10,374 nt of DNA from a virus. Shown here piece after piece: positions 1 through 10,374 of this stretch (position 1 is the stretch's first letter; each line of letters opens with the position of its first letter). A program made the position numbers and the translations under genes. Under the pieces are notes generated by a model, which was not told the DNA's origin, did no database searches, and saw only the letters and a program-made list of their open reading frames with translations. The stretch lies in the UHGV virus genome UHGV-0314755; one strand, given 5' to 3'.

Positions 1-37
1 GTGGCGTGTTCAGCAGAAAACTCAGCTCAAGGAACAA

Positions 38-2170
38 ATGGGGCAGCAAGCATGGATAGGAAATATCGCTCAAAAATACAACGAGTTTCTTCAGGTTAAT
101 GGAGAGCCAGGGGATCTTGGTGGTGTGAGTCGTGCAATATCACATGGTAATTCATTGGATGCTCGTGGTTTACGTAATAATAACCCTGGTAATATTGAAG
201 CGAGCAAATCTAACCCGTGGGAAGGTCAGATCGGTAGCGATGGACGTTTTGCAACGTTTGCTACCCCTGAGCATGGAATCCGCGCGTTGGGTAAAAATAT
301 GTTGTCTTACCAGCGTCAAGGCTATGACACCGTTAGCGAGATTGTTAATCGCTATGCTCCGGCTAGTGATGGTAATAATACTGATGCTTATATTAGGGCA
401 TTGTGTGGTGAGCTTGGTGTTGGGGAGAATGATCAGCTTGATATCTCTAACCCAAAGACACTAGCTGCTTTATGTGCTGGGATTATTAAACACGAAAATG
501 GCAGTATGCCTTATAGCACCGAACAGCTTGAAACTGGTATCTCGGCAGCCCTTGGTCTAACTAACCTTGATTCACCTAAGCGTTATACGGGCAATGCGGC
601 ATTTGATGCTATGAGCCCTCAAATGCAAATACAGGCATTGAGGCAGGCTAATGAGCTGAGAAATCAGTACCGCCAGCAGTATGCGGACCAGCTTAGCACC
701 GTAGTTAAAGATGCATATTCAGCCCTTGATGAAGGATTGAAACCTGAGAAGTTACCTTCTGAGGACGATTTTATCCGGGCCAATGGTCCGCGCATTGGCG
801 CTATGAAGTGGAAGGATATGCAGGCGCAGATACAATATGGAGGTGTCATTGGTGCCGCTAAAGACCTCACTCCAGAAGGACGACAAGACATTCTTGAACG
901 TTTACGTCCACAGGATCCAAACGCTCCTGGATTTGCTGCTAACCAGCAACGCTGGGAGAAAATGCAGGCCAAATTTAAAGAGATGGATAGGGAGTGGGAG
1001 ATTCAGCAGGGAAGAAACAGGTTCGTGTCTTCAATGCAAAATAACTTCCCGCTGGACCCGAACGACAAAAACAATCAGGCAGCGGTAGACCGTTATTTCG
1101 CGCAGGATATCGCGCCTTCGTTTTCCATATCTGATCCGCAGAGCATCAATACACTGGTCACCGTCACAACTAAAAGCGGCATGATACCAACTCAGGTTAA
1201 AACAATGCTTAACAGTGGAGCAACATCAAGAGATCCTGCGCTGGTTGTCCCGATGGCAAAATTCTACGGTCAGTTATTCGATAATAATCCGGCGGCAGCG
1301 GCAACACTTGATAAAAGTACGATGGCATTTTACGGCAAGGTTTACGATTATTCCCGCGCTGGCGTGCCGGAGGATAAGGCTGTTGATATGGCTTACAGCC
1401 AGGTGTTCCAACAGGATGACCGAATGAAACAGATGCTTTCCACTGCCATGCGAGACAAAAAATATGTCGCGGCGAGGGCAACTGCTGCACAAAATAACGC
1501 CAGCAGTCTGACTTCCTTTGGTTCGTGGTCTCCGGATATTACCGATCCAGGAAAATCAAATGCGGCCTATCAGCGAGATTACCAGACAATTTACGATGCT
1601 AACTTTGTACAGACAGGTGGCGATGCAGAACAGGCTGAGAAAATGACCAATGCCATGATCAGAACCACCTGGGGAGTTTCTACGGTTAATGGCAAAGCAG
1701 AGGTTATGAAGTATGCACCTGAGGCATTGTACGGAGTAAATAATGGTGCTGGTAACTGGATACAGGGGCAGTGGGAGCAGGAAAAACGCGAGCTTAAATC
1801 AAAATCCTTTGGCGGTCCTCGCAGTGATACGGACTTAATACTTGTTTCTGATGGCCTTACGGCAAGGGATAGGAGTTATGCTGTTATGGTTTTACAGCCT
1901 GACGCAAACGGAGCGATAGAACCGAGAAATTATATTGGAGAAAATGGTCTCCCTGTTCGTTTCAAGCCGGATCAACTGACATCTCCAATGTACAGGCAAA
2001 CCATTCAGTTACAGCAACAGCGTGTTGATGAGGCTAGAGTGCGGAGAGAAGGCAATCCGCTGCCGCAGTTCAGCAATAAAGATGGATATACTCCTCCAGA
2101 TCTGACCAAACCATTCGGTTATGGTTCAGCCAATTACCTTCCGAGCAATATATACGCAGGGGGCAAATAA
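38..2170 (+). CDS. Phage internal virion / DNA-ejection (core) protein, 710 aa; the start may lie upstream of the window
   Basis: Long ORF with enteric-like composition. ATG at 38 is preceded by AAGGA (29-33), but the reading frame stays open back to base 2, so a 5' extension beyond the window cannot be excluded. Stop TAA (2168-2170) overlaps the next gene's ATG (TAATG), indicating translational coupling within a structural operon. Position just before a tailspike gene and size are typical of podovirus ejection/core proteins. The N-terminal ~100 aa contains a conserved-looking block (RGLRNNNPGNIE...GSDGRFATFATPEHGIRA). Product assignment is inference from context. Confidence 0.75.
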   Translation: MGQQAWIGNIAQKYNEFLQVNGEPGDLGGVSRAISHGNSLDARGLRNNNPGNIEASKSNPWEGQIGSDGRFATFATPEHGIRALGKNMLSYQRQGYDTVSEIVNRYAPASDGNNTDAYIRALCGELGVGENDQLDISNPKTLAALCAGIIKHENGSMPYSTEQLETGISAALGLTNLDSPKRYTGNAAFDAMSPQMQIQALRQANELRNQYRQQYADQLSTVVKDAYSALDEGLKPEKLPSEDDFIRANGPRIGAMKWKDMQAQIQYGGVIGAAKDLTPEGRQDILERLRPQDPNAPGFAANQQRWEKMQAKFKEMDREWEIQQGRNRFVSSMQNNFPLDPNDKNNQAAVDRYFAQDIAPSFSISDPQSINTLVTVTTKSGMIPTQVKTMLNSGATSRDPALVVPMAKFYGQLFDNNPAAAATLDKSTMAFYGKVYDYSRAGVPEDKAVDMAYSQVFQQDDRMKQMLSTAMRDKKYVAARATAAQNNASSLTSFGSWSPDITDPGKSNAAYQRDYQTIYDANFVQTGGDAEQAEKMTNAMIRTTWGVSTVNGKAEVMKYAPEALYGVNNGAGNWIQGQWEQEKRELKSKSFGGPRSDTDLILVSDGLTARDRSYAVMVLQPDANGAIEPRNYIGENGLPVRFKPDQLTSPMYRQTIQLQQQRVDEARVRREGNPLPQFSNKDGYTPPDLTKPFGYGSANYLPSNIYAGGK

Positions 2171-5100
2171 TGCCGATATATGAACAGAATCCTAAAGAGT
2201 TGCTTGGCGAGGATATTCAGCAAATAGCAGCACCTGATGACAGTAATTTCTATATGGAAACACCTTCTTTGCTTTCTGCTGTGAACCCATTTACCAGTGA
2301 TCAACGCGTTCAAAGGTCTAGACAAGCAGCATTTCGTATAGATAACACGCTGGGTAGCTTTATTGCCAGTGCTCCTTTCAGTCAGTTTGACAGGGTTGAA
2401 GGATATAACCCATTTGATAACGATGCAGCAGATATTAAAGGCTATGAAGATTTTGCAGATTCGTTTATCAACTCCGGTTCGCATGAAGAAACAATGGCAA
2501 TTAAACATCGAATCGATAAGCAAAGAACAGATAGAGAATATCTATCTGAAATGGGTGGTGCTGGTACTATTTCAAGCTTAGCAATGGGAATGATAGACCC
2601 GGTTAATGTGGCTGCAATGTTCATCCCTGTAGGGGCGGTAGCGCGTGGAGGAAGTATTGCTGAGACGGCAGGGCGTTTTGCCCTAGCGAATGCTGCTGGT
2701 GGGGGAGTATCAGAAGCCGCATTACAGGCCACTCAGGAAGCTCGCTCACCGATGGAGAGCGTATCGAACGTTGTTGTTGATGCTCTCGTTGGTGGGATCC
2801 TTGGTGCTGGTGCACAGCTACTTGCTGGACCTAGCGCGCGCGAGGCAGTGGTTAACTCAGTAGGTAATCATTTGCGAGGTATGGATTCTCCTCAAAGCAT
2901 TGGTGCAGCTCAGGTTTTCAATACCACACTCGATCAGGAACAGCTCGCTGGACTTGGACTTGCTAACAAAACGTTGAGTGTCACTCCTGCTGGCCGCTTG
3001 GCTCAATCACCATCTCTTGTCTCCCGTCAGATTAACCAGCAGCTTGCCGAAAATAACTATTTCTTCGCCAAAAATGATGAGGGGTTGGCTACGTTTACGG
3101 CAGTCGAGACTAAGATTAAGCAATACGACGCCATGCTTTATAAGCAGATGGAAGCCACTCGTGATGCTTACCAGCAGTACAGCAAATCTGTTAGCGCCCG
3201 CGGCGTGAAGAGGATGAGCTTTATTGATTTCAATGAAGCTGTTGGCATGGCTATGCGCCGTGGTGATCAGAGTGATATTCCTGAGGTTTCACAAGCAGCC
3301 GCCAGAATCCGCCCCATTTTCGAGACCACAAAAGCCCGTATGCAGGAACTGGGGATCCTTCCTGAGGATATCGATGTCGTGACGGCGAAAAGTTATCTTC
3401 CCCGCATTTATAAGTTCGATAAGATACTTTCCGACCGCACTGAATTCAGAGGGCGAATTGCCAACTGGATACAAGGGATTAGTGCCAAAGGTGCTGACAA
3501 AGCAGGTCAGCGAATTGAAAGGATAAATTCATTGCTAAAAACTGCAGAGGAATCGGCACCGCGCGCTGATGCTCTCGCTAGTGAAATCGCTGAAGCGGAG
3601 AAATGGTCTGGTAAAAAAATTCTACTTATGGAAGAACTGGATAAACGAAATAAGCTTATATCTCAGGAGACTGACACACAGGCGCGTCTTACAAGAATAG
3701 AAAAAGAGTTGGCCGAGACTTCATCAGAAAAACTTCAGGCAAGAATGATGAAAGAAAGCTCTGACCTTAAAACACGCCTTGATGATATAGCGCAGGCAAA
3801 GAGTGAGCTTCCTGTCTATCAGCGCCATATGGAGTTGCTGGATAATCCACGGAAATATCGTTCTGAGCTTCGCCGACTGCAAAAACGGGCAAATTCAACC
3901 ACAAGGCTGAATGCAAGCCGCGAACGAGCACTGAAGCAGATGGAGCCTCTATCCCGAGAGGAAGCAGAGGACGCTGCTGACGAGATCGTGAATAAAATAA
4001 TAGGCGCACCTTCCGGGCTTGTACCAGCCGATATTATCCCAGAGAGACTCGTTGGTCGGGCTGGTTTCACTAAAAGCAGAACGCTGCTTATTCCTGATGA
4101 GCGTATAGAAGATTTTCTTGAATCAGATGTTAACTACATCATGGAAAGTTATCTCCGGCAGGTGGCACCAGAAATTGAGCTGACTGCGCAGTTTGGCCGT
4201 AAAGATATGGGGGAGCAAATCCGTCAGGTTAGTGAGGAATATACCCGGCTAATAAAAGAGGCTAAAACACCTAAACGACGTGCAGTTCTTGAGAAGCAAC
4301 GGGAGGCTGATATTAGGGATATTACGGCTATGCGTGATCGACTGCTTGGTACTTACGGTGCACCTCAAGATCCACGCAGTTTCTTTGTTCGTGCCGGGCG
4401 AGTTGCTAGGAATATTAACTTCCTCCGTTTGCTTGGTGGAATGACTGTCTCCGCTGCAACTGATCTGATGCGACCGATGATGCAGCATGGCCTGAGAAAA
4501 TCTCTCGGACCAATGGTAAGCATGCTTAAAAATATGGACTCAGTGAAAATTGCAACCAGGGATTTGCGAGAAATGGCCGTTGGGCTTGATTATGTCCTGT
4601 CTACGCGTACAAAGGCTATAGCGGATCTTACTGACCCCTATAGCCGGAGAAGCGCCGCTGAGCGAGGTCTGAACTGGATGACGCAGAAATTCGGTAACTG
4701 GACGCTGATGAATCAGTGGAACAGCGCACTTAAATCATGGTCCGGGATGATAGTGCAGTCGAGGATACTTGACGCGGCTCGCCAAGTTTCTGCTGGTGGC
4801 ACGCTCTCCAAAAGTGAAATGCGGAAGATGGCACAGGTCGGCATCAATGAAGATGTTCTGCGCCGAATCGGGGAGCAATTCGGGAAGCACGGAGAGGATA
4901 TGGACGGGCTGTTAACCGGGCATAGTCATCTGTGGGATGACCGTTTCGCTAGAGAGATTTTCCAGTCTGCAGTGCTGAAAGATGTAGACTCAGTGATTGT
5001 AACGCCTGGCGTAGGTGATACACCGCTGTTTTTTAGTAAAGAAGGCTGGAAGATGATCACGCAGTTCAAAACGTTTATCTTCGCACAGCATAACAGGGTG

Positions 5101-5559
5101 CTAGTATCTGGTATCCAGCAGGGCGATGCTGCATTCTATCTTGGTGCGCTTGGCACGATTGCGCTTGGCTCAATGGTCTATATGATGAAACAGAAGTTAA
5201 GCGGTCGCGATATCGACTACAGCTGGAATAACCTTGTGAAAGAGGGGATCGACCGGGGCGGAATGCTTGGCTGGCTCTCTGAGCCGCTGAATACCGTTGA
5301 GAACATAAGCGGCGGTAGGTTTGGTCTTGGCGCGATGTTTGGTGCGCCTCCGGTATCAAGGTTTCAGAGTCGTAATGCTATTGGTGCTTTACTTGGTCCT
5401 ACCTTTGATCTTGGCGGTGATGCCGCGACGGTTGCGAATGGTGTACTTAACGGAGAATTTGACAGCCAGCAAACCCACGCGGTCCGTAAAATGCTACCTT
5501 TTCAGAACCTGTGGGCGATATCACCGTTACTAAATAAAGTTGAAGAGCAGATGAAATAG
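2170..5559 (+). CDS. Large phage internal virion / ejection protein (ejectosome or tail-hub-like), 1129 aa
   Basis: ATG at 2170 overlaps the upstream stop; SD AGGGGG (2158-2163) with a 6-nt spacer. The protein has Gly/Ala-rich hydrophobic segments (about aa 128-215, e.g. GGAGTISSLAMGMIDPVNVAAMFIPVGAVARGG and VVVDALVGGILGAGAQLLAG), a long charged heptad-like region (about aa 435-610, rich in E/K/R/L/Q) and a second hydrophobic patch near aa 990-1020. This composition is typical of channel-forming ejection proteins. Function is inferred, not shown by search. Confidence 0.8.
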   Translation: MPIYEQNPKELLGEDIQQIAAPDDSNFYMETPSLLSAVNPFTSDQRVQRSRQAAFRIDNTLGSFIASAPFSQFDRVEGYNPFDNDAADIKGYEDFADSFINSGSHEETMAIKHRIDKQRTDREYLSEMGGAGTISSLAMGMIDPVNVAAMFIPVGAVARGGSIAETAGRFALANAAGGGVSEAALQATQEARSPMESVSNVVVDALVGGILGAGAQLLAGPSAREAVVNSVGNHLRGMDSPQSIGAAQVFNTTLDQEQLAGLGLANKTLSVTPAGRLAQSPSLVSRQINQQLAENNYFFAKNDEGLATFTAVETKIKQYDAMLYKQMEATRDAYQQYSKSVSARGVKRMSFIDFNEAVGMAMRRGDQSDIPEVSQAAARIRPIFETTKARMQELGILPEDIDVVTAKSYLPRIYKFDKILSDRTEFRGRIANWIQGISAKGADKAGQRIERINSLLKTAEESAPRADALASEIAEAEKWSGKKILLMEELDKRNKLISQETDTQARLTRIEKELAETSSEKLQARMMKESSDLKTRLDDIAQAKSELPVYQRHMELLDNPRKYRSELRRLQKRANSTTRLNASRERALKQMEPLSREEAEDAADEIVNKIIGAPSGLVPADIIPERLVGRAGFTKSRTLLIPDERIEDFLESDVNYIMESYLRQVAPEIELTAQFGRKDMGEQIRQVSEEYTRLIKEAKTPKRRAVLEKQREADIRDITAMRDRLLGTYGAPQDPRSFFVRAGRVARNINFLRLLGGMTVSAATDLMRPMMQHGLRKSLGPMVSMLKNMDSVKIATRDLREMAVGLDYVLSTRTKAIADLTDPYSRRSAAERGLNWMTQKFGNWTLMNQWNSALKSWSGMIVQSRILDAARQVSAGGTLSKSEMRKMAQVGINEDVLRRIGEQFGKHGEDMDGLLTGHSHLWDDRFAREIFQSAVLKDVDSVIVTPGVGDTPLFFSKEGWKMITQFKTFIFAQHNRVLVSGIQQGDAAFYLGALGTIALGSMVYMMKQKLSGRDIDYSWNNLVKEGIDRGGMLGWLSEPLNTVENISGGRFGLGAMFGAPPVSRFQSRNAIGALLGPTFDLGGDAATVANGVLNGEFDSQQTHAVRKMLPFQNLWAISPLLNKVEEQMK

Positions 5560-6000
5560 CTATTCACAATTAGTGATGGCGTATGTATCAAATATATTGC
5601 CATCACTAAATACATACCTATACTCAATCTCTCCGCCAAGGTGAATAAATGCTTTCATTTGCCTGTTGGAGCAAATGCTCGATTTTGAATAATTTCGCAT
5701 TACACTCTTTAATTTATTTTCTAAGGTTACATCACCATTATAAACTTTTGATAAATAGCTGTTGTTGTAATTAAGATGCGCTACAACTAAGAGTTTGTTT
5801 AGTATTGCATTTATTGAAACAATAGACATATTATCATTCAATTTTATGGGAAGTGACTTTCCTGCTTCTGATGCAATTTTGTTTGCATGTGCACACATAT
5901 CCTCATTTATTAAATTCTTAAAACATATGTCGTTTGCAAACGAAAAAATTGGTAGGATAAACAAAACGGTAGCTGTAATAGCGTGCATCGGCTTAATCAT
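5560..6000 (-). CDS. Small secreted (periplasmic) protein of unknown function, 146 aa; AT-rich cargo gene
   Basis: Only long ORF in a strongly AT-rich segment. N-terminus MIKPMHAITATVLFILPIFSFA/ND has the shape of a Sec signal peptide (positive n-region, hydrophobic core, A-x-A-like cleavage site). The mature part has 4 Cys and is N/K/I/S-rich. An AAGG motif lies 7 nt upstream of the ATG at 6000 (minus strand). The stop (5560-5562) abuts the stop of the 1129-aa gene on the other strand. No recognised family. Confidence 0.5.
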   Translation of the reverse strand: MIKPMHAITATVLFILPIFSFANDICFKNLINEDMCAHANKIASEAGKSLPIKLNDNMSIVSINAILNKLLVVAHLNYNNSYLSKVYNGDVTLENKLKSVMRNYSKSSICSNRQMKAFIHLGGEIEYRYVFSDGNIFDTYAITNCE

Positions 6001-6012
6001 TAGGTGACCTTT

Positions 6013-6462
6013 ATGTTCAAGAAGATGATCAACAGATTAATCGGTGGTAAGGAGGTTAGCAATAAAATTCAACCTCTTATCTTTAAGGATAACTTTTCAG
6101 CTTTTGAGTATGCGTGTAAGTATCTTGACACAAGCCTTTCAGCCAATAAACCAATGCCAGCCATCATCATACCTGGTCCCAGTGGGGAACAGCCAGTTTT
6201 GCTGGATTCTGGAAGACAAAGGGCAATGCTGAAGGTGTGCTCAGCTGATGGTGGATTTTTTGTTATTGCCGATTCATCTTACAGCAAAGGACCAAAGCTG
6301 AGGATTGGTGATCTTGTTGCTTGGTTGCCTGTGAGTTATGCCGAAGAATTAACGGATAAAATAGAAGATCCTCGCTCCGCTATGGTTGGCTTTATATTGG
6401 GAACCATTCATCCTGAACTAACATCTACTGGCTGGAAGGGTAAAGAAAGATTTCGCAAGTAG
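6013..6462 (+). CDS. Hypothetical cytoplasmic protein, 149 aa (cargo gene)
   Basis: ORF open from GTG 6004; the preferred start is ATG 6013, with SD AGGTGA (6002-6007) and a 5-nt spacer. Ends TAG at 6460-6462 and is followed immediately by an intrinsic terminator. No TM segment or signal peptide. No recognisable family by eye. Confidence 0.6.
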   Translation: MFKKMINRLIGGKEVSNKIQPLIFKDNFSAFEYACKYLDTSLSANKPMPAIIIPGPSGEQPVLLDSGRQRAMLKVCSADGGFFVIADSSYSKGPKLRIGDLVAWLPVSYAEELTDKIEDPRSAMVGFILGTIHPELTSTGWKGKERFRK

Positions 6463-6475
6463 CGTGACATGTCAC

Positions 6476-6500
6476 AGGCCGCTTTCGCGGCCTTGTTTTT
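6476..6500 (+). terminator. Rho-independent terminator for the plus-strand transcript (after the 149-aa gene)
   Basis: 7-bp GC-rich stem AGGCCGC/GCGGCCT with loop TTTC (6476-6493), followed by TGTTTTT (6494-6500). It is preceded by a perfect 12-bp palindrome, GTGACATGTCAC (6464-6475). Confidence 0.7.
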
Positions 6501-6537
6501 AACGAATGCCACCGCCGCCCGGGTGGGAATCCGCAGA

Positions 6538-6563
6538 CACAAAAAAGCCCGCGCCGCGGGCTT
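6538..6563 (-). terminator. Rho-independent terminator for the minus-strand transcript (after the 210-aa gene); with the previous feature it forms a convergent terminator pair
   Basis: Palindrome AAGCCCGCG-C-CGCGGGCTT (6545-6563) followed on the minus strand by a T-run (plus-strand AAAAAA at 6541-6546). It lies 4 nt downstream of the TAA stop of the 210-aa gene (6567-6569, minus). Confidence 0.7.
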
Positions 6564-6566
6564 CTA

Positions 6567-7199
6567 TTAATGCAGTTTATCTTTGCTTATAACCAGTAGT
6601 CTGTGGGTATGCACATCTTTATCACTGCCCCAACAGAAATCAGCCCACTGGCTATAGAAATCATCCCATGATGTCATGAAGCTAAGAGGTCTATCTTCTT
6701 CAGAGCCATCTGAAACGTATACATTATATCCCGGGGTGTTTATAGCCCAAGAAATCATTCTTTCCCAGAATCTTCTCCCATCGATTGTTTGTTGCTCATC
6801 AGATACAACGATCGCATATTGCTCTAGGAAGAACTGAAAAAAAATCTGAGGCAAACCATGAACAGCACGGTCATGAATAACATTAGGCGTACGCCATACC
6901 ATGATCTGCGTACATGTTCTTTTGGCTTCGACGATATCTTCCCGAAAGATTAACTTAACCGCATACACCGTTTCTGGAGTATCGCTGGTAGTAATCATTC
7001 TGTAATGATCGCCATTACAAGATTTTACAAGGCGATAACCATAAGGTGTTGTGAATCCCGGAAGAACGAAATCAACCACACCTTTCGCTAAGTAGCTTTC
7101 GGTGTGACTAGTGTTCTTCTCAGACATGTTCAGTTTTCTATCGAAATCTGCTTCTGGGATAATGTATGGCATCGCTTTTCTTGTTGTATTTGTTTTCAT
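6567..7199 (-). CDS. Hypothetical protein, 210 aa (orphan cargo gene, Trp/aromatic-rich C-terminus)
   Basis: Strong SD GGGAGGA 5 nt upstream of ATG 7199 (minus strand). Clean ORF ending at a good terminator. No TM segment or signal peptide. Operator copy 1 (TTACC-N5-GGTAA) lies 60 bp upstream, overlapping a TAATAT -10-like hexamer. No family recognised; an R-x5-H motif (RTPNVIH) is noted but is too short to interpret. Confidence 0.7.
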   Translation of the reverse strand: MKTNTTRKAMPYIIPEADFDRKLNMSEKNTSHTESYLAKGVVDFVLPGFTTPYGYRLVKSCNGDHYRMITTSDTPETVYAVKLIFREDIVEAKRTCTQIMVWRTPNVIHDRAVHGLPQIFFQFFLEQYAIVVSDEQQTIDGRRFWERMISWAINTPGYNVYVSDGSEEDRPLSFMTSWDDFYSQWADFCWGSDKDVHTHRLLVISKDKLH

Positions 7200-7258
7200 T
7201 TCGTCCTCCCATGTTTGGCTACAGGACGCGTTTTGAAGGGAAGATTAAAAACGCTTTC

Positions 7259-7273
7259 TTACCCGTAAGGTAA
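7259..7273. promoter_or_regulatory. Operator copy 1: palindrome TTACC-cgtaa-GGTAA upstream of the 210-aa gene
   Basis: Exact TTACC(N5)GGTAA. It overlaps a candidate minus-strand -10 (TAATAT, 7278-7273), with a weak -35-like TTGGCG 18 bp further upstream (7302-7297). It is one of three copies in the window, all in non-coding regions upstream of or between minus-strand genes. Confidence 0.5.
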
Positions 7274-7315
7274 TATTACGCGAATCTACATCACATCGCC
7301 AATGATTATTTTAAA

Positions 7316-7331
7316 GGCACATCCCTGTGCC
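7316..7331 (-). terminator. Possible weak terminator or stem-loop just downstream of the antirepressor gene
   Basis: 6-bp stem GGCACA/TGTGCC with loop TCCC, starting 8 nt after the ant stop (7339-7341). The following minus-strand sequence is TTTAAAATAAT, a poor U-tract, hence low confidence. Confidence 0.3.
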
Positions 7332-7338
7332 GCCGCCG

Positions 7339-8049
7339 TCAGAAGAACCCTGCCTTGTCGTTGATGTACTCCGCGTGCGTCTGGATATCACGCAGGCATT
7401 TGCTCACACCGACGATGTAGCAGAACATGGTGGTCAGCTCCGCCGCCGCGCCCGATACGTCGTGCCCGTCTTCCTGTAACTGGTTCAGCAGATTCATCAG
7501 CAGTGAGTTTTCCGTCAGGCCGAGAACACCAGACGGAGAATGAATCAGGCTGCGGTAGCCGGGCTTCAGTGGGGCGCTGTAGGTTTTGTTCTCTATCTTC
7601 ATTGCCTGCATCACTGCTGATGCTGTGGCGTTGGCTACCTGGTCGGCAACCATCTTTATGCGTTCTTCCTGCGGGAGCGAGTTTTTAATGTAACTTCCTG
7701 TGCGGCGGATCTGAGGAAGAACCTCACCTGTAACCCATTTACGAAAGCGGTAGGGGATAGTGCCTGGTGTTACTGCATCGCGGCAGCGGAGGATCAGTGT
7801 GTAGAGGCCTGACTCGGAGATGATGTTGATCTCTTTTACTCGGCTGTCAAAAATTGCACGATGTTCATGCCCTATGTTGAACATAGACCTTTCATCATCA
7901 TCCAGTTTTTCAAGTGATTGGGTGACGTTTTGGATACGCAGCGCACTACAAACGTCTTGGGCTACAAACCATGGTTGGCCATCGATAATGATGGAACGGA
8001 TAGGGTTAACAGATTCAAATTTGAAGATGGCAGTTTGAGCATTAGCCAT
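7339..8049 (-). CDS. ant: Phage antirepressor, 236 aa: Bro-N-type N-terminal domain plus Ant-type C-terminal domain
   Basis: N-terminus MANAQTAIFKFESVNPIRSIIIDGQPWFVAQDVCSALRI matches the Bro-N / P22-antirepressor N-terminal signature (F.F....IR....DG.PWFVA.DVC..L). Preferred start is ATG 8049, with SD GGAGA and an 8-nt spacer; the ORF track's extension to 8064 uses a GTG with no SD. The C-terminal ~65 aa are about 45% identical to the 85-aa protein encoded at 8365-8622. Confidence 0.85.
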   Translation of the reverse strand: MANAQTAIFKFESVNPIRSIIIDGQPWFVAQDVCSALRIQNVTQSLEKLDDDERSMFNIGHEHRAIFDSRVKEINIISESGLYTLILRCRDAVTPGTIPYRFRKWVTGEVLPQIRRTGSYIKNSLPQEERIKMVADQVANATASAVMQAMKIENKTYSAPLKPGYRSLIHSPSGVLGLTENSLLMNLLNQLQEDGHDVSGAAAELTTMFCYIVGVSKCLRDIQTHAEYINDKAGFF

Positions 8050-8060
8050 GGTGGTTATCT

Positions 8061-8145
8061 CCACTTAGTGATTTTAATCACCACCGCAACGCCAATTACT
8101 GGTGGTGAACTGGACAAGGTTGGCGTACCGGCCTAAGTGGTACCG
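8061..8145 (-). promoter_or_regulatory. Candidate promoter/operator region of the antirepressor gene
   Basis: Minus-strand -10-like TAAAAT (8076-8071), about 20 nt upstream of the ant start region. An 8-bp inverted repeat, TCACCACC (8078-8085) / GGTGGTGA (8101-8108), sits over the -35 region. The 8-mer CCACTTAG occurs at 8061-8068 and 8234-8241, and inverted (CTAAGTGG) at 8133-8140. GTACCGGC is directly repeated at 8125-8132 and 8140-8147. Promoter assignment is tentative. Confidence 0.35.
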
Positions 8146-8205
8146 GCGTCCTTTCGGACCCCTGCCCAGCCCACCATAATTCGGATATAGCTGTGCTTAA
8201 CGCAT

Positions 8206-8228
8206 AAAAAAACCACGTCTGGCGTGGT
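8206..8228 (-). terminator. Rho-independent terminator on the minus strand, between the small Ant-like gene and the antirepressor gene
   Basis: Minus strand reads ACCACG-CCAGA-CGTGGT followed by TTTTTTT (plus-strand A7 at 8206-8212). It lies downstream of two further hairpins (8247-8262 and 8262-8283). Confidence 0.55.
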
Positions 8229-8302
8229 ATGCGCCACTTAGTAACTCGGGACGCCAATCCCGGCACTGGATTTTGCCAGTGCCCGATTACTATGGCACAA
8301 GA

Positions 8303-8346
8303 GGAGTGCAATGTAAATTTACCGCAAAGGTAAATATAAGCACTCC
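8303..8346. promoter_or_regulatory. Operator copy 2: TTACC-gcaaa-GGTAA (8319-8333) embedded in a longer imperfect palindrome
   Basis: Exact TTACC(N5)GGTAA core, flanked by the inverted 7-mers GGAGTGC (8303-8309) and GCACTCC (8340-8346). It lies 19 bp downstream of the small Ant-like gene's stop and about 270 bp upstream of the ant start. Confidence 0.5.
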
Positions 8347-8364
8347 ATTTGGTAATTGCAAACC

Positions 8365-8622
8365 TTATCTGGTTTGTTTTCGTAATTGTTCGGCACAATA
8401 GTCGAGATGTGTTTGCAGATCCTGCATAGACATCTGTGAGCTGGTGACGTAGTTAATCAGTGCAGTCAGTTCGGCAAGTGGGCCATCGACATTAAATCCA
8501 TCCTTATCGAGATCCCGGAGTAATTTCATCAAGTGCGATCCCTCCACCAGTGACCTGACGCCTCCCGGCGTGTGAATCCTTTCGGTAAATCCGTCTTCCA
8601 GTGGATAGTGATACTGCTGCAT
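8365..8622 (-). CDS. Small antirepressor-like protein, 85 aa: free-standing homolog of the Ant C-terminal domain, probably SOS-controlled
   Basis: Preferred start ATG 8622 (SD GGAG, 8-nt spacer); the ORF track's start at 8637 has no SD and would leave only 7 bp between the start codon and the LexA box. The sequence TERIHTPGGVRSLVEGSHLMKLLRDLDKDGFNVDGPLAELT...DLQTHLDY aligns with the ant product's LIHSPSGVLGLTENSLLMNLLNQLQEDGHDVSGAAAELT...DIQTHAEY. A near-consensus LexA box lies immediately upstream. Confidence 0.75.
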   Translation of the reverse strand: MQQYHYPLEDGFTERIHTPGGVRSLVEGSHLMKLLRDLDKDGFNVDGPLAELTALINYVTSSQMSMQDLQTHLDYCAEQLRKQTR

Positions 8623-8642
8623 CTTAATCTTCTCCATGCAAT

Positions 8643-8662
8643 AACTGTATGTTTATACAGTA
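8643..8662. promoter_or_regulatory. LexA (SOS) box upstream of the small Ant-like gene
   Basis: AACTGTATGTTTATACAGTA matches the E. coli LexA consensus TACTGTATATATATACAGTA at 17 of 20 positions, with CTGT-N8-ACAG intact. It overlaps a TATAAA -10-like hexamer on the minus strand and is the only such box in the window. Confidence 0.8.
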
Positions 8663-8699
8663 GCAAATAATTTGTTTGCTATCCAGCACGTTTTGCAAA

Positions 8700-8714
8700 T
8701 TACCTGAAAGGTAA
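8700..8714. promoter_or_regulatory. Operator copy 3: TTACC-tgaaa-GGTAA in the divergent region between the small Ant-like gene and the tailspike gene
   Basis: Exact TTACC(N5)GGTAA, preceded by the palindrome TTTGCAAA (8692-8699). It lies about 80 bp upstream of the small gene's start and about 105 bp upstream of the tailspike ATG. Confidence 0.5.
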
Positions 8715-8818
8715 TATCTATTCATATTCACAGTCTTTCTATCCATATGTGGTTTTTCAGGTAATAGAATAACCAGATATGCGGCGCAACGGGTGCTGCG
8801 ACTATCTGGAGATTTAAC

Positions 8819-10374
8819 ATGACGGTCTCAACCAAAGTTGACCACAACGAATACACAGGTAACGGCGTTACGACATCGTTTCCGTATACTTTTCGAATTT
8901 TCAGAAAATCAGACCTGGTTGTTCAGGTGTCTGACCTGAACGGGAACGTAACAGAATTGGTTCTGGATACCGGTTATACGGTAATTGGGGTGGGAGCTTA
9001 TAGTGGTGGTACAGTGGTTCTTCCGTCGCCGCTTGCTGCTGGCTGGCGAATCACTATAGAGCGTGTGCTTGATGTGGTGCAGGAGACTGACCTTCGAAAT
9101 CAGGGGAATTTTTTTCCAGAAGTTCATGAGGATGCATTTGACTACCTGACGATGCTGATTCAGCAGTCTTTTTCTGGTCTATCTCTTGCACTCAGAAAGC
9201 CATCACGTTTATCAAATTATTATGATGCTCGTGATAACAGAATCCAAAACTTAGCAAGCCCAATTCTCCCGAACGATGGTGTAAACCGTAATTTTGTAGA
9301 AAACCTTTTTATTGATAAAAGCGCATCTGCTTCTGCATTGCGCTCTTTGCTGGAAAGCGCAGCTGGGGCTGGAATAATTGGTACATTGCAGGGATTAACC
9401 GTTCAGTCAGTTTTAGATAATGTAAAAATCCCACTGACGTCATTCGTGTTTTCTATTCCTGATGATTTTGCTAATGCAGATTCTTTAGCAGAATATCTTG
9501 AAAATAGATGCTATACCGGCACGCAAGTAATAGTACATGTCTCAGCAGGCACTCATAATTGGAATACTCTAAATAAGATTTTTGGGAAAGAGTGGGGTTT
9601 TGGCCGACTTAAATTTGTTGGTGAAGGAATGGATTTGACAATTATTCAGTTTCTTAAACAGGACGGAATTTATGCTGAAGCAGGTGAGTGTTATGGTCAT
9701 GCGCCACAGTTTCCCGTGAGTGGTGGTGATATAATACCAATATTTAGTAATTTAACTATATCAGGAATTGACAGAGATTCAGGAATTGATGATCCATATC
9801 TTGATTCAATGGGGATAAGGGCGTTTGACGGCGGTGTTGTTGTACTTGATGAAAGCGTAAGAATAACTCAGTTTTCCAGGTGTGGAGTTATGGCTGAGAG
9901 GCATGGTATAGCTTTTGTTCCTGGGGTTAAAGTCGATACTACAGGTTCTGATTGTTTCGCTGCCTCTGAAGGTGGTTATATCTATTGTCCAGACTCTACA
10001 GCAAGCAACCCGAAAGGTCATTGCTACATCGCATATTCTGGAGGGCAGCTTTATATGCCTAACTGTATTGCCCAGAATGCAGAGACACACAACTCGTCAA
10101 ATGTAGGGGGATCTGGTCTTGTGTTGACCGGAAGCAGTTACGCTTACGCTATTAATCTTCAAACTAAAAACAATGCTCAACGTGGAATTAGTGTGGCGTT
10201 AGGGTCTTTTCTACGAGCTGACGGGTTTACTGAGAGTGAAAATATTCTACCTGTGACTGTTTCGCAGGGTTCCACGTTGGTTTCTCCAAATTGCACAATA
10301 AACAAACCAGATGCTCTTGCGCTTTTAATTGAGAAAGGAGGAAAGGCATTTTTCCAGGTAGCAACAACTGATAA
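8819..10374 (+). CDS. Tailspike protein, 5'-partial view (518+ aa; runs off the window end), with an epsilon15/Det7-type conserved N-terminal particle-binding domain
   Basis: Not in the supplied ORF track because no stop falls within the window; I translated it by hand from ATG 8819 (SD GGAG 8808-8811) and found it open to the end. N-terminus MTVSTKVDHNEYTGNGVTTSFPYTFRIFRKSDLVVQV...ETDLRNQG...LTMLIQQ matches, from memory, the conserved N-terminal domain shared by tailspikes of epsilon15-like and related enterobacterial phages. The downstream part is lower in GC and not recognisable. Confidence 0.88.
   Translation, partial: MTVSTKVDHNEYTGNGVTTSFPYTFRIFRKSDLVVQVSDLNGNVTELVLDTGYTVIGVGAYSGGTVVLPSPLAAGWRITIERVLDVVQETDLRNQGNFFPEVHEDAFDYLTMLIQQSFSGLSLALRKPSRLSNYYDARDNRIQNLASPILPNDGVNRNFVENLFIDKSASASALRSLLESAAGAGIIGTLQGLTVQSVLDNVKIPLTSFVFSIPDDFANADSLAEYLENRCYTGTQVIVHVSAGTHNWNTLNKIFGKEWGFGRLKFVGEGMDLTIIQFLKQDGIYAEAGECYGHAPQFPVSGGDIIPIFSNLTISGIDRDSGIDDPYLDSMGIRAFDGGVVVLDESVRITQFSRCGVMAERHGIAFVPGVKVDTTGSDCFAASEGGYIYCPDSTASNPKGHCYIAYSGGQLYMPNCIAQNAETHNSSNVGGSGLVLTGSSYAYAINLQTKNNAQRGISVALGSFLRADGFTESENILPVTVSQGSTLVSPNCTINKPDALALLIEKGGKAFFQVATTD

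Follow-up and report, generated by a model that had tools for sequence, protein, structure and literature searches.

Introduction

Tailspike modules set the host range of phages, and no other phage parts are reused as often in phage engineering or as anti-capsule enzymes. In the epsilon15 and P22 groups, those tailspikes that have been characterised are endoglycosidases. The modularity of tailspikes is well established (PMC10684548, PMC6872550), and fragment-level shuffling of receptor-binding proteins has been documented in general (PMC10684548).

Here, we analysed the tailspike gene at the 3' end of a 10,374-nt stretch of viral DNA (UHGV-0314755; hereafter, the window). The epsilon15-like spikes (epsilon15 gp20, the phiV10 tail fibre, and the EC.W1-9 "eliminase") share with the window spike an anchor of ~165 residues at 66–81% amino acid identity, and they occupy the same syntenic position in the genome, the E. 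coli members of this group being 92% identical to it in nucleotide sequence over the first 354 nt; their receptor-binding part, by contrast, is unrelated in sequence to that of the window spike. Coliphage K5 orf523 (AAG59820.1 in AF322018), the second spike gene of this Zindervirus, is homologous to the whole receptor-binding module, with 71% identity in the core, and belongs to the same predicted beta-helix family, also without functional annotation; however, K5 is a lytic T7-like rather than a temperate phage and orf523 lacks the anchor domain. Instead, orf523 begins with MLQRLSTKLIQ, which resembles the undecapeptide MIQRLGSSLVK of the K1-5 endosialidase, a peptide thought to bind that enzyme to an adapter protein (PMC6872550). 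Finally, the spikes of P22-like (Lederbergvirus-type) E. coli prophages (WP_282656269.1, P0004; a 64-member cluster) carry the same module, have the same length past the anchor, and also lie at the prophage end, but they start with a P22 Head_binding N-terminus (Pfam E = 3.9e-67) and the two ends of their module are 52% and 57% identical to those of the window spike.

Results

Genomic context and full length of the tailspike gene

The tailspike open reading frame, as read from the sequence, lies on the plus strand with its ATG at 8819–8821 and a Shine-Dalgarno-like GGAG at 8808–8811 on the same strand, 7 nt 5' of the ATG; it is open for 518 codons and is cut by the end of the window. A promoter/terminator scan of the DNA 5' of the gene gave nothing better than shuffled sequence. 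By sequence comparison, the source of the window is an epsilon15/phiV10-type E. coli prophage: the window is 99.96% identical, ungapped over all 10,374 bases, to an E. coli prophage (L010; GCA_014486175.1), and over its positions 1–5559, where the genes for injection and internal virion proteins lie, identity to Escherichia phage EC.W1-9 is 98%. Recovery of the full gene, proposed in the earlier note on this DNA, succeeded from L010 and from an IMG/VR contig (L005), both of which carry a gene for a 702-residue spike that equals the window protein over the 518 common residues, with five synonymous differences; another IMG/VR locus (L003) was too short for the entire gene. In total, 19 contigs carry the exact 702-residue protein, which falls in a 24-member cluster and also has many deposits at NCBI labelled only "hypothetical protein [Escherichia coli]", and an exact 37-mer search for the full gene among GTDB species representatives gave no match. 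We also considered that the gene might be a pseudogene or decaying remnant, and this was ruled out, the protein being identical on 19 contigs, in complete-looking prophages. The spike gene is followed by genes for two holins, a GH19 endolysin, and a spanin and then by chromosomal yfgI/yfgH and ppx/ppk. In the related loci (L010–L015), the injection-protein genes are followed first by a small variable region and then by the spike gene, beyond which lies the lysis cassette.

The anchor domain and its junction at codon 118

We divided the anchor into a conserved segment, codons 1–118 (8819–9172, plus strand; GC 46.9%, GC3 0.46), which is supported by nucleotide identity and a PDB match, and a remainder, codons 119–165 (9173–9313, plus strand), which is a divergent allele with homology at the protein level only and in which the low GC starts. 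The earlier note had matched the N-terminus to epsilon15-type tailspikes, and our searches with residues 1–165 agree with this: at least 25 PHROG tail families match (best, PHROG 1640, E = 2.2e-95), and tblastn returned 124 phage records, among them Salmonella phage VB_ST_E15 (70% identity) and phiV10 (66%), the range across phiV10, VB_ST_E15, and EC.W1-9 being 66–81%. With this query, the tblastn matches to phiV10 and VB_ST_E15 concern the anchor only. The anchor also has matches in Klebsiella, Pseudomonas, Bordetella (BPP-1), and Pelagibacter podophages, and residues 1–128 match the N-terminus of the solved depolymerases Dpo31/Dpo36 (PDB 28lx/8ck1; E = 1.4e-27).

At the nucleotide level, 8819–9172 is 90–93% (about 92%) identical to seven records of epsilon15-like E. 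coli phages (ZX5, phiv142-3, EC.W1-9, HEMP4, and three of Phi05 B), and identity to all seven ends at 9164–9172, i.e. at codon 118; for phiV10, nucleotide matches end already at 8942. Across this junction, 9120–9238 finds only matches of 72–76% nucleotide identity in E. coli genomes. The protein alignment to the EC.W1-9 spike runs on to residue 161 at lower identity while nucleotide identity collapses, and beyond residue 165 BLASTP detected no similarity between the two spikes. The deposited variants of the 702-residue protein (P0035–P0047) fall into two allele classes, with 13–14 substitutions within residues 1–118 and 0–2 in the 584 residues from 119 to 702. Because these variants differ almost only in residues 1–118, the anchor segment is itself being exchanged at codon 118, and the junction is reused.

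A base composition shift at the junction

The estimate in the earlier note of 47–48% GC for the first ~100–150 codons was essentially right (47.7% for codons 1–100, 46.9% for codons 1–118, and 45.1% for codons 1–150). The drop to 38–40% that it placed from ~9110–9300 onward is present at 9300–9800 (38.3%) but does not persist, GC recovering to 43.8% in 9800–10374, with 41.0% over 9173–10374 as a whole. The observed shift is clearest at third codon positions, where GC3 falls from 0.458 in codons 1–118 to 0.28 in the remainder, so that GC is not uniform across the gene; for comparison, every 400-codon segment of the two long virion genes nearby has a GC3 of 0.39–0.51. A scan for a single GC3 change-point places it best at codon 116, with a statistic reached by only 14 of 2000 shuffles, and the GC3 split gives a Fisher p of 5e-4, the split having been picked post hoc. 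This change-point coincides with the abrupt loss of nucleotide identity to the relatives at gene nt 348–354 (window 9166–9172).

Importantly, the receptor-binding module has a GC3 of 0.26–0.29 in epsilon15-like, P22-like, and K5 backgrounds alike. In the EC.W1-9 spike, the receptor-binding part of which is unrelated, that part is at 0.27, compared to 0.40–0.47 in anchors. Because GC3 is low in all backgrounds and in a non-homologous module, low GC by itself is no proof of a recent foreign arrival, and because an unrelated receptor-binding part is equally low, composition is not independent proof of transfer. We conclude that low GC is a property of the pool of exchangeable modules and that the proof of exchange is the observed homology pattern and not composition. 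Of the other features that the earlier note had attributed to the later region, a cysteine content is clear, with eight cysteines in residues 166–518 and none in residues 1–165; richness in N/S/T/G is marginal only, with a share of 32% beyond the anchor, 30% in the anchor, and 24–27% in other virion proteins.

A rare receptor-binding module behind at least six N-termini

Codons 166–296 (9314–9706, plus strand) encode a predicted helical neck and N-terminal cap and form the 5' flank of the module, which has diverged from its closest relative. Homology to the 642-residue tailspike of P22-like E. coli prophages begins at residue 174, corresponding to residue 114 of that protein and thus directly past its Pfam Head_binding domain; this domain (PF09008) is absent from the window protein and present in the relative (L001/P0004). 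Among 50,697 phage records, coliphage K5 orf523 was the sole relative of the module (tblastn, 62.6% identity, E = 9e-180, 93% coverage of residues 171–702), and the receptor-binding parts of epsilon15 gp20 and phiV10 were not returned. An exhaustive HMMER profile search of 1.84 billion representative proteins yielded only five clusters at E < 1e-30, the four full-length clusters of the module family all having E <= 1e-187, and a word-indexed protein search yielded three homologues. The module family is thus very small and rare, and its phage-database member, K5 orf523, is without functional annotation; a full-text literature search for "orf523" gave nothing relevant. The module had no Pfam match above threshold, no NCBIfam match, and no PDB sequence match, the last of these being the outcome of a comparison with structures that the earlier note had suggested.

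In addition to the epsilon15-type anchor, the P22 Head_binding domain, and the short peptide of K5 (P0003 is 99% identical to orf523), the module follows a P2-type Phage_tail_fib domain (P0005) and three further N-termini (P0001, P0002, and P0006), with P0002 in yet another type of podophage. Judged from these sequences, the module is used behind at least six different N-termini, or attachment solutions. The horizontal swap of the receptor-binding module that the earlier note had proposed is supported from both sides: a 92% identical anchor is shared with spikes of epsilon15-like coliphages, such as EC.W1-9, that have unrelated C-terminal parts, and from residue 174 onward the protein is homologous to spikes with P22 Head_binding, K5 orf523, and Phage_tail_fib N-termini. 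No characterised tailspike is collinear with the 702-residue protein.

Exchange of a central block between homologous spikes

Compared with the P22-like version, amino acid identity is 52% in residues 174–293, 98% in residues 294–597, and 57% in residues 598–702. The high-identity core spans 902 nt (gene nt 889–1790, corresponding to 9707–10608 in window numbering) and is 97.45% identical to the P22-like spikes, with flanks of 59% and 57% nucleotide identity; across the C-terminal flank, other family members are at least as close to the window spike as the P22-like protein is. A core of 98% identity, diverged flanks, and a C-terminal flank that is no closer together argue that a block of ~300 residues of rungs was recently exchanged between homologous spikes. 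On this pattern, the exchange partners are the spikes of epsilon15-like and P22-like prophages, already homologous but diverged. A single junction therefore does not describe the observed mosaic, in which we located three breakpoints, close to codons 118, 297, and 597.

Both types of spike were observed together in at least one E. coli assembly (H6297 locus tags; P0042 and P0062), which contains a complete gene of the P22 type alongside a fragment that has the C-terminal flank of the epsilon15 type. Judging solely from the closeness of their accession numbers, HHX5311246 and HHX5311058 probably also come from one assembly. These findings suggest co-resident prophages as the setting for the core exchange.

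Predicted fold and invariant acidic residues

Codons 297–518 (9707–10374, plus strand; cut by the window end), the in-window part of the 902-nt core, are predicted to form the rungs of a right-handed parallel beta-helix. We modelled the window fragment and the homologue P0004, in both cases as monomers. The AlphaFold2 model of residues 158–518, made with the family alignment (pLDDT 83.5, pTM 0.81), has a helical neck, a small alpha/beta cap, and then regular three-stranded rungs, and the model of the full-length homologue P0004 is a single beta-helix that ends ~20 residues short of the C-terminus, leaving no separate C-terminal domain. Foldseek searches of PDB and BFVD returned beta-helix matches that are generic, with low TM scores and at most 17% identity; most of the top matches are enzymes that act on polysaccharides or enzymatic tailspikes, and the searches lean slightly to alginate epimerase/lyases. 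P22 gp9 was matched with E = 1.7e-3 and a TM score of ~0.3. Matches to Pfam Beta_helix remain below its gathering score (PF13229; 13.1 and 15.6 bits compared to a cut-off of 25.9), and distant relatives (P0008–P0029; E = 1e-14 to 1e-10), some of which have an epsilon15-type N-terminus, pass it. Because models, Foldseek matches, and distant relatives passing Beta_helix agree, we regard the assignment as a right-handed parallel beta-helix as solid as a prediction; neither the fold matches nor the family searches assign the module to an enzymatic class.

We detected no homology at the sequence level between the module and characterised beta-helix spikes or enzymes. CBA120 TSP2 (5w6p/6w4q), phi29 gp12 (3gq7), P22 gp9, HK620, AlgE4 (2pyg), and 8ja4 differ from it with identities of 8–17%, and the spike bodies of P22, Sf6, and HK620 gave no PDB sequence match, the only such matches arising from the head-binding rows of the alignment. 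Seven acidic residues in the beta-helix region (D324, D325, D329, D337, E360, D373, and D378) are invariant in the family, including in members that are otherwise 53–60% identical to the window spike, and on the basis of this conservation they are candidates for a catalytic site.

Discussion

In our preferred explanation, an epsilon15/phiV10-like temperate podophage, integrated in E. coli, has this gene for its only tailspike, and the spike is a recombinant of at least four segments. Specifically, residues 1–165 are the lineage's own tail-attachment domain, fixing a presumably trimeric spike to the tail hub. Residues 174–702 are a module of the small "coliphage K5 orf523" family, predicted to fold as a long right-handed parallel beta-helix. 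From what other beta-helix tailspikes do, we infer trimer formation, glycan binding, cleavage, and the identity of the glycan, i.e. the module would bind and probably cleave O-antigen or capsule, allowing the virion to reach the outer membrane. The module has moved between unrelated phage lineages with recombination at the anchor/module boundary, and in a later step its central 300 residues underwent exchange with a P22-like prophage spike, probably in a host with both prophages. We are confident about the architecture and recombinant origin of the tailspike and cautiously favour enzymatic cleavage of a surface polysaccharide, taken alone. A spike working like epsilon15 gp20 or P22 gp9 is the best-supported reading, and the labels "depolymerase" and "unusual glycan" are plausible.

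Some beta-helix spikes bind without cleaving, and the module might be a non-catalytic spike of the adhesin type, only holding the virion on a glycan or protein receptor. We consider this somewhat unlikely because polysaccharide-active enzymes and enzymatic tailspikes make up most of the best fold matches, several Asp/Glu of the beta-helix are invariant among members 53–60% identical to the window spike, and the epsilon15 and P22 groups have endoglycosidases as their characterised tailspikes. That the fold searches lean slightly to alginate epimerase/lyases would instead fit a lyase/epimerase-like module acting by removal of the C5 proton from a uronic acid, in the manner of AlgE-type mannuronan epimerase/lyases; such a module, which implies an acidic capsule or colanic-acid-like target and not a neutral O-antigen, seems to us distinctly unlikely. 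A broader proposal, which we would advance as a speculation with the odds against it, is that the orf523-type module represents an unrecognised depolymerase family with a distinct glycan specificity and possibly mechanism (e.g. AlgE-like), and that residues 297–597 are a specificity cassette swapped between co-resident prophages independently of the ends of the beta-helix.

The recombinant origin itself has to be weighed against the idea that selection or amino-acid composition lowered the GC in a gene that was inherited vertically as a whole and never recombined. That a GC3 of 0.26–0.29 is general to such receptor-binding parts, including a non-homologous one, would agree with vertical inheritance; nevertheless, the drop occurs at synonymous positions within a few bases of the point at which identity to seven relatives is lost, the sequence 3' of it shares homology with spikes whose N-termini are unrelated, and an internal patch of 902 nt is 97.5% identical to a P22-like spike between flanks of 57–59%. 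Uninterrupted vertical descent is thus highly improbable, and the presence of the exact protein on 19 independent contigs argues against the homologies being assembly chimeras. We therefore retain a recombinant spike as the preferred reading.

Recombination between anchor and module is ordinary phage evolution, and our findings leave the picture of tailspike modularity unchanged. Rather, they are of specialist interest in that a rare module family without a structure, a Pfam model, or a known function is used behind at least six attachment solutions and has undergone recent exchange at the sub-domain level across prophage families. Through the window spike, K5 orf523 is connected with two other phage families, both represented by temperate prophages of E. 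coli, providing a functional lead. Moreover, a spike in which the central rungs have been swapped and both ends are diverged represents a natural experiment that predicts where the determinants of specificity lie.

As for the hosts, the module finds a match in only two of 5426 complete E. coli genomes, and the P22-type version is present in two complete genomes, E400634 and K56-43-un. E400634 carries the O-antigen cluster rfbBDAC-wzx-wecB-...-wzy-GT2-GT4 (L008, NZ_CM128600.1 1935000–1952000). Altogether 22 genomes match this cluster, 13 of the 5426 in full and nine more over the first 3.5 kb only at 88–89% identity, and the other carrier, K56-43-un, is not among the 22.

Several features of the neighbouring DNA were also recorded. 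The two large genes for injection and internal virion proteins (2–5558) are 82% identical in nucleotide sequence to Klebsiella phages ST512-KPC3phi13.3 and Kp4865-1, arguing that the injection part of the virion module is common across genera and the spike is not. Positions 5560–8818 are a patchwork of small genes, mostly on the minus strand, which relatives match piecewise and the gene content of which differs between prophages with an identical spike. This region includes a Bro-N/Ant-type anti-repressor at 7339–8064 and, at 8365–8637, a 90-codon open reading frame matching the same PHROG (450) as the C-terminus of the 241-residue anti-repressor. Some near-identical prophages carry genes for an ISL3-family transposase (406 residues) and a DUF1706 protein (172 residues) just 5' of the spike (L005, 3475–5360; L014, 7974–9731); this insertion is absent from the window, where the corresponding point is 8649–8656, between the 85/90-residue gene and the spike. 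In the P22-like prophage with the related spike (L001, 2300–4121), genes for a YafO-family toxin and three Arc-family repressors lie directly 5' of the antirepressor and spike genes.
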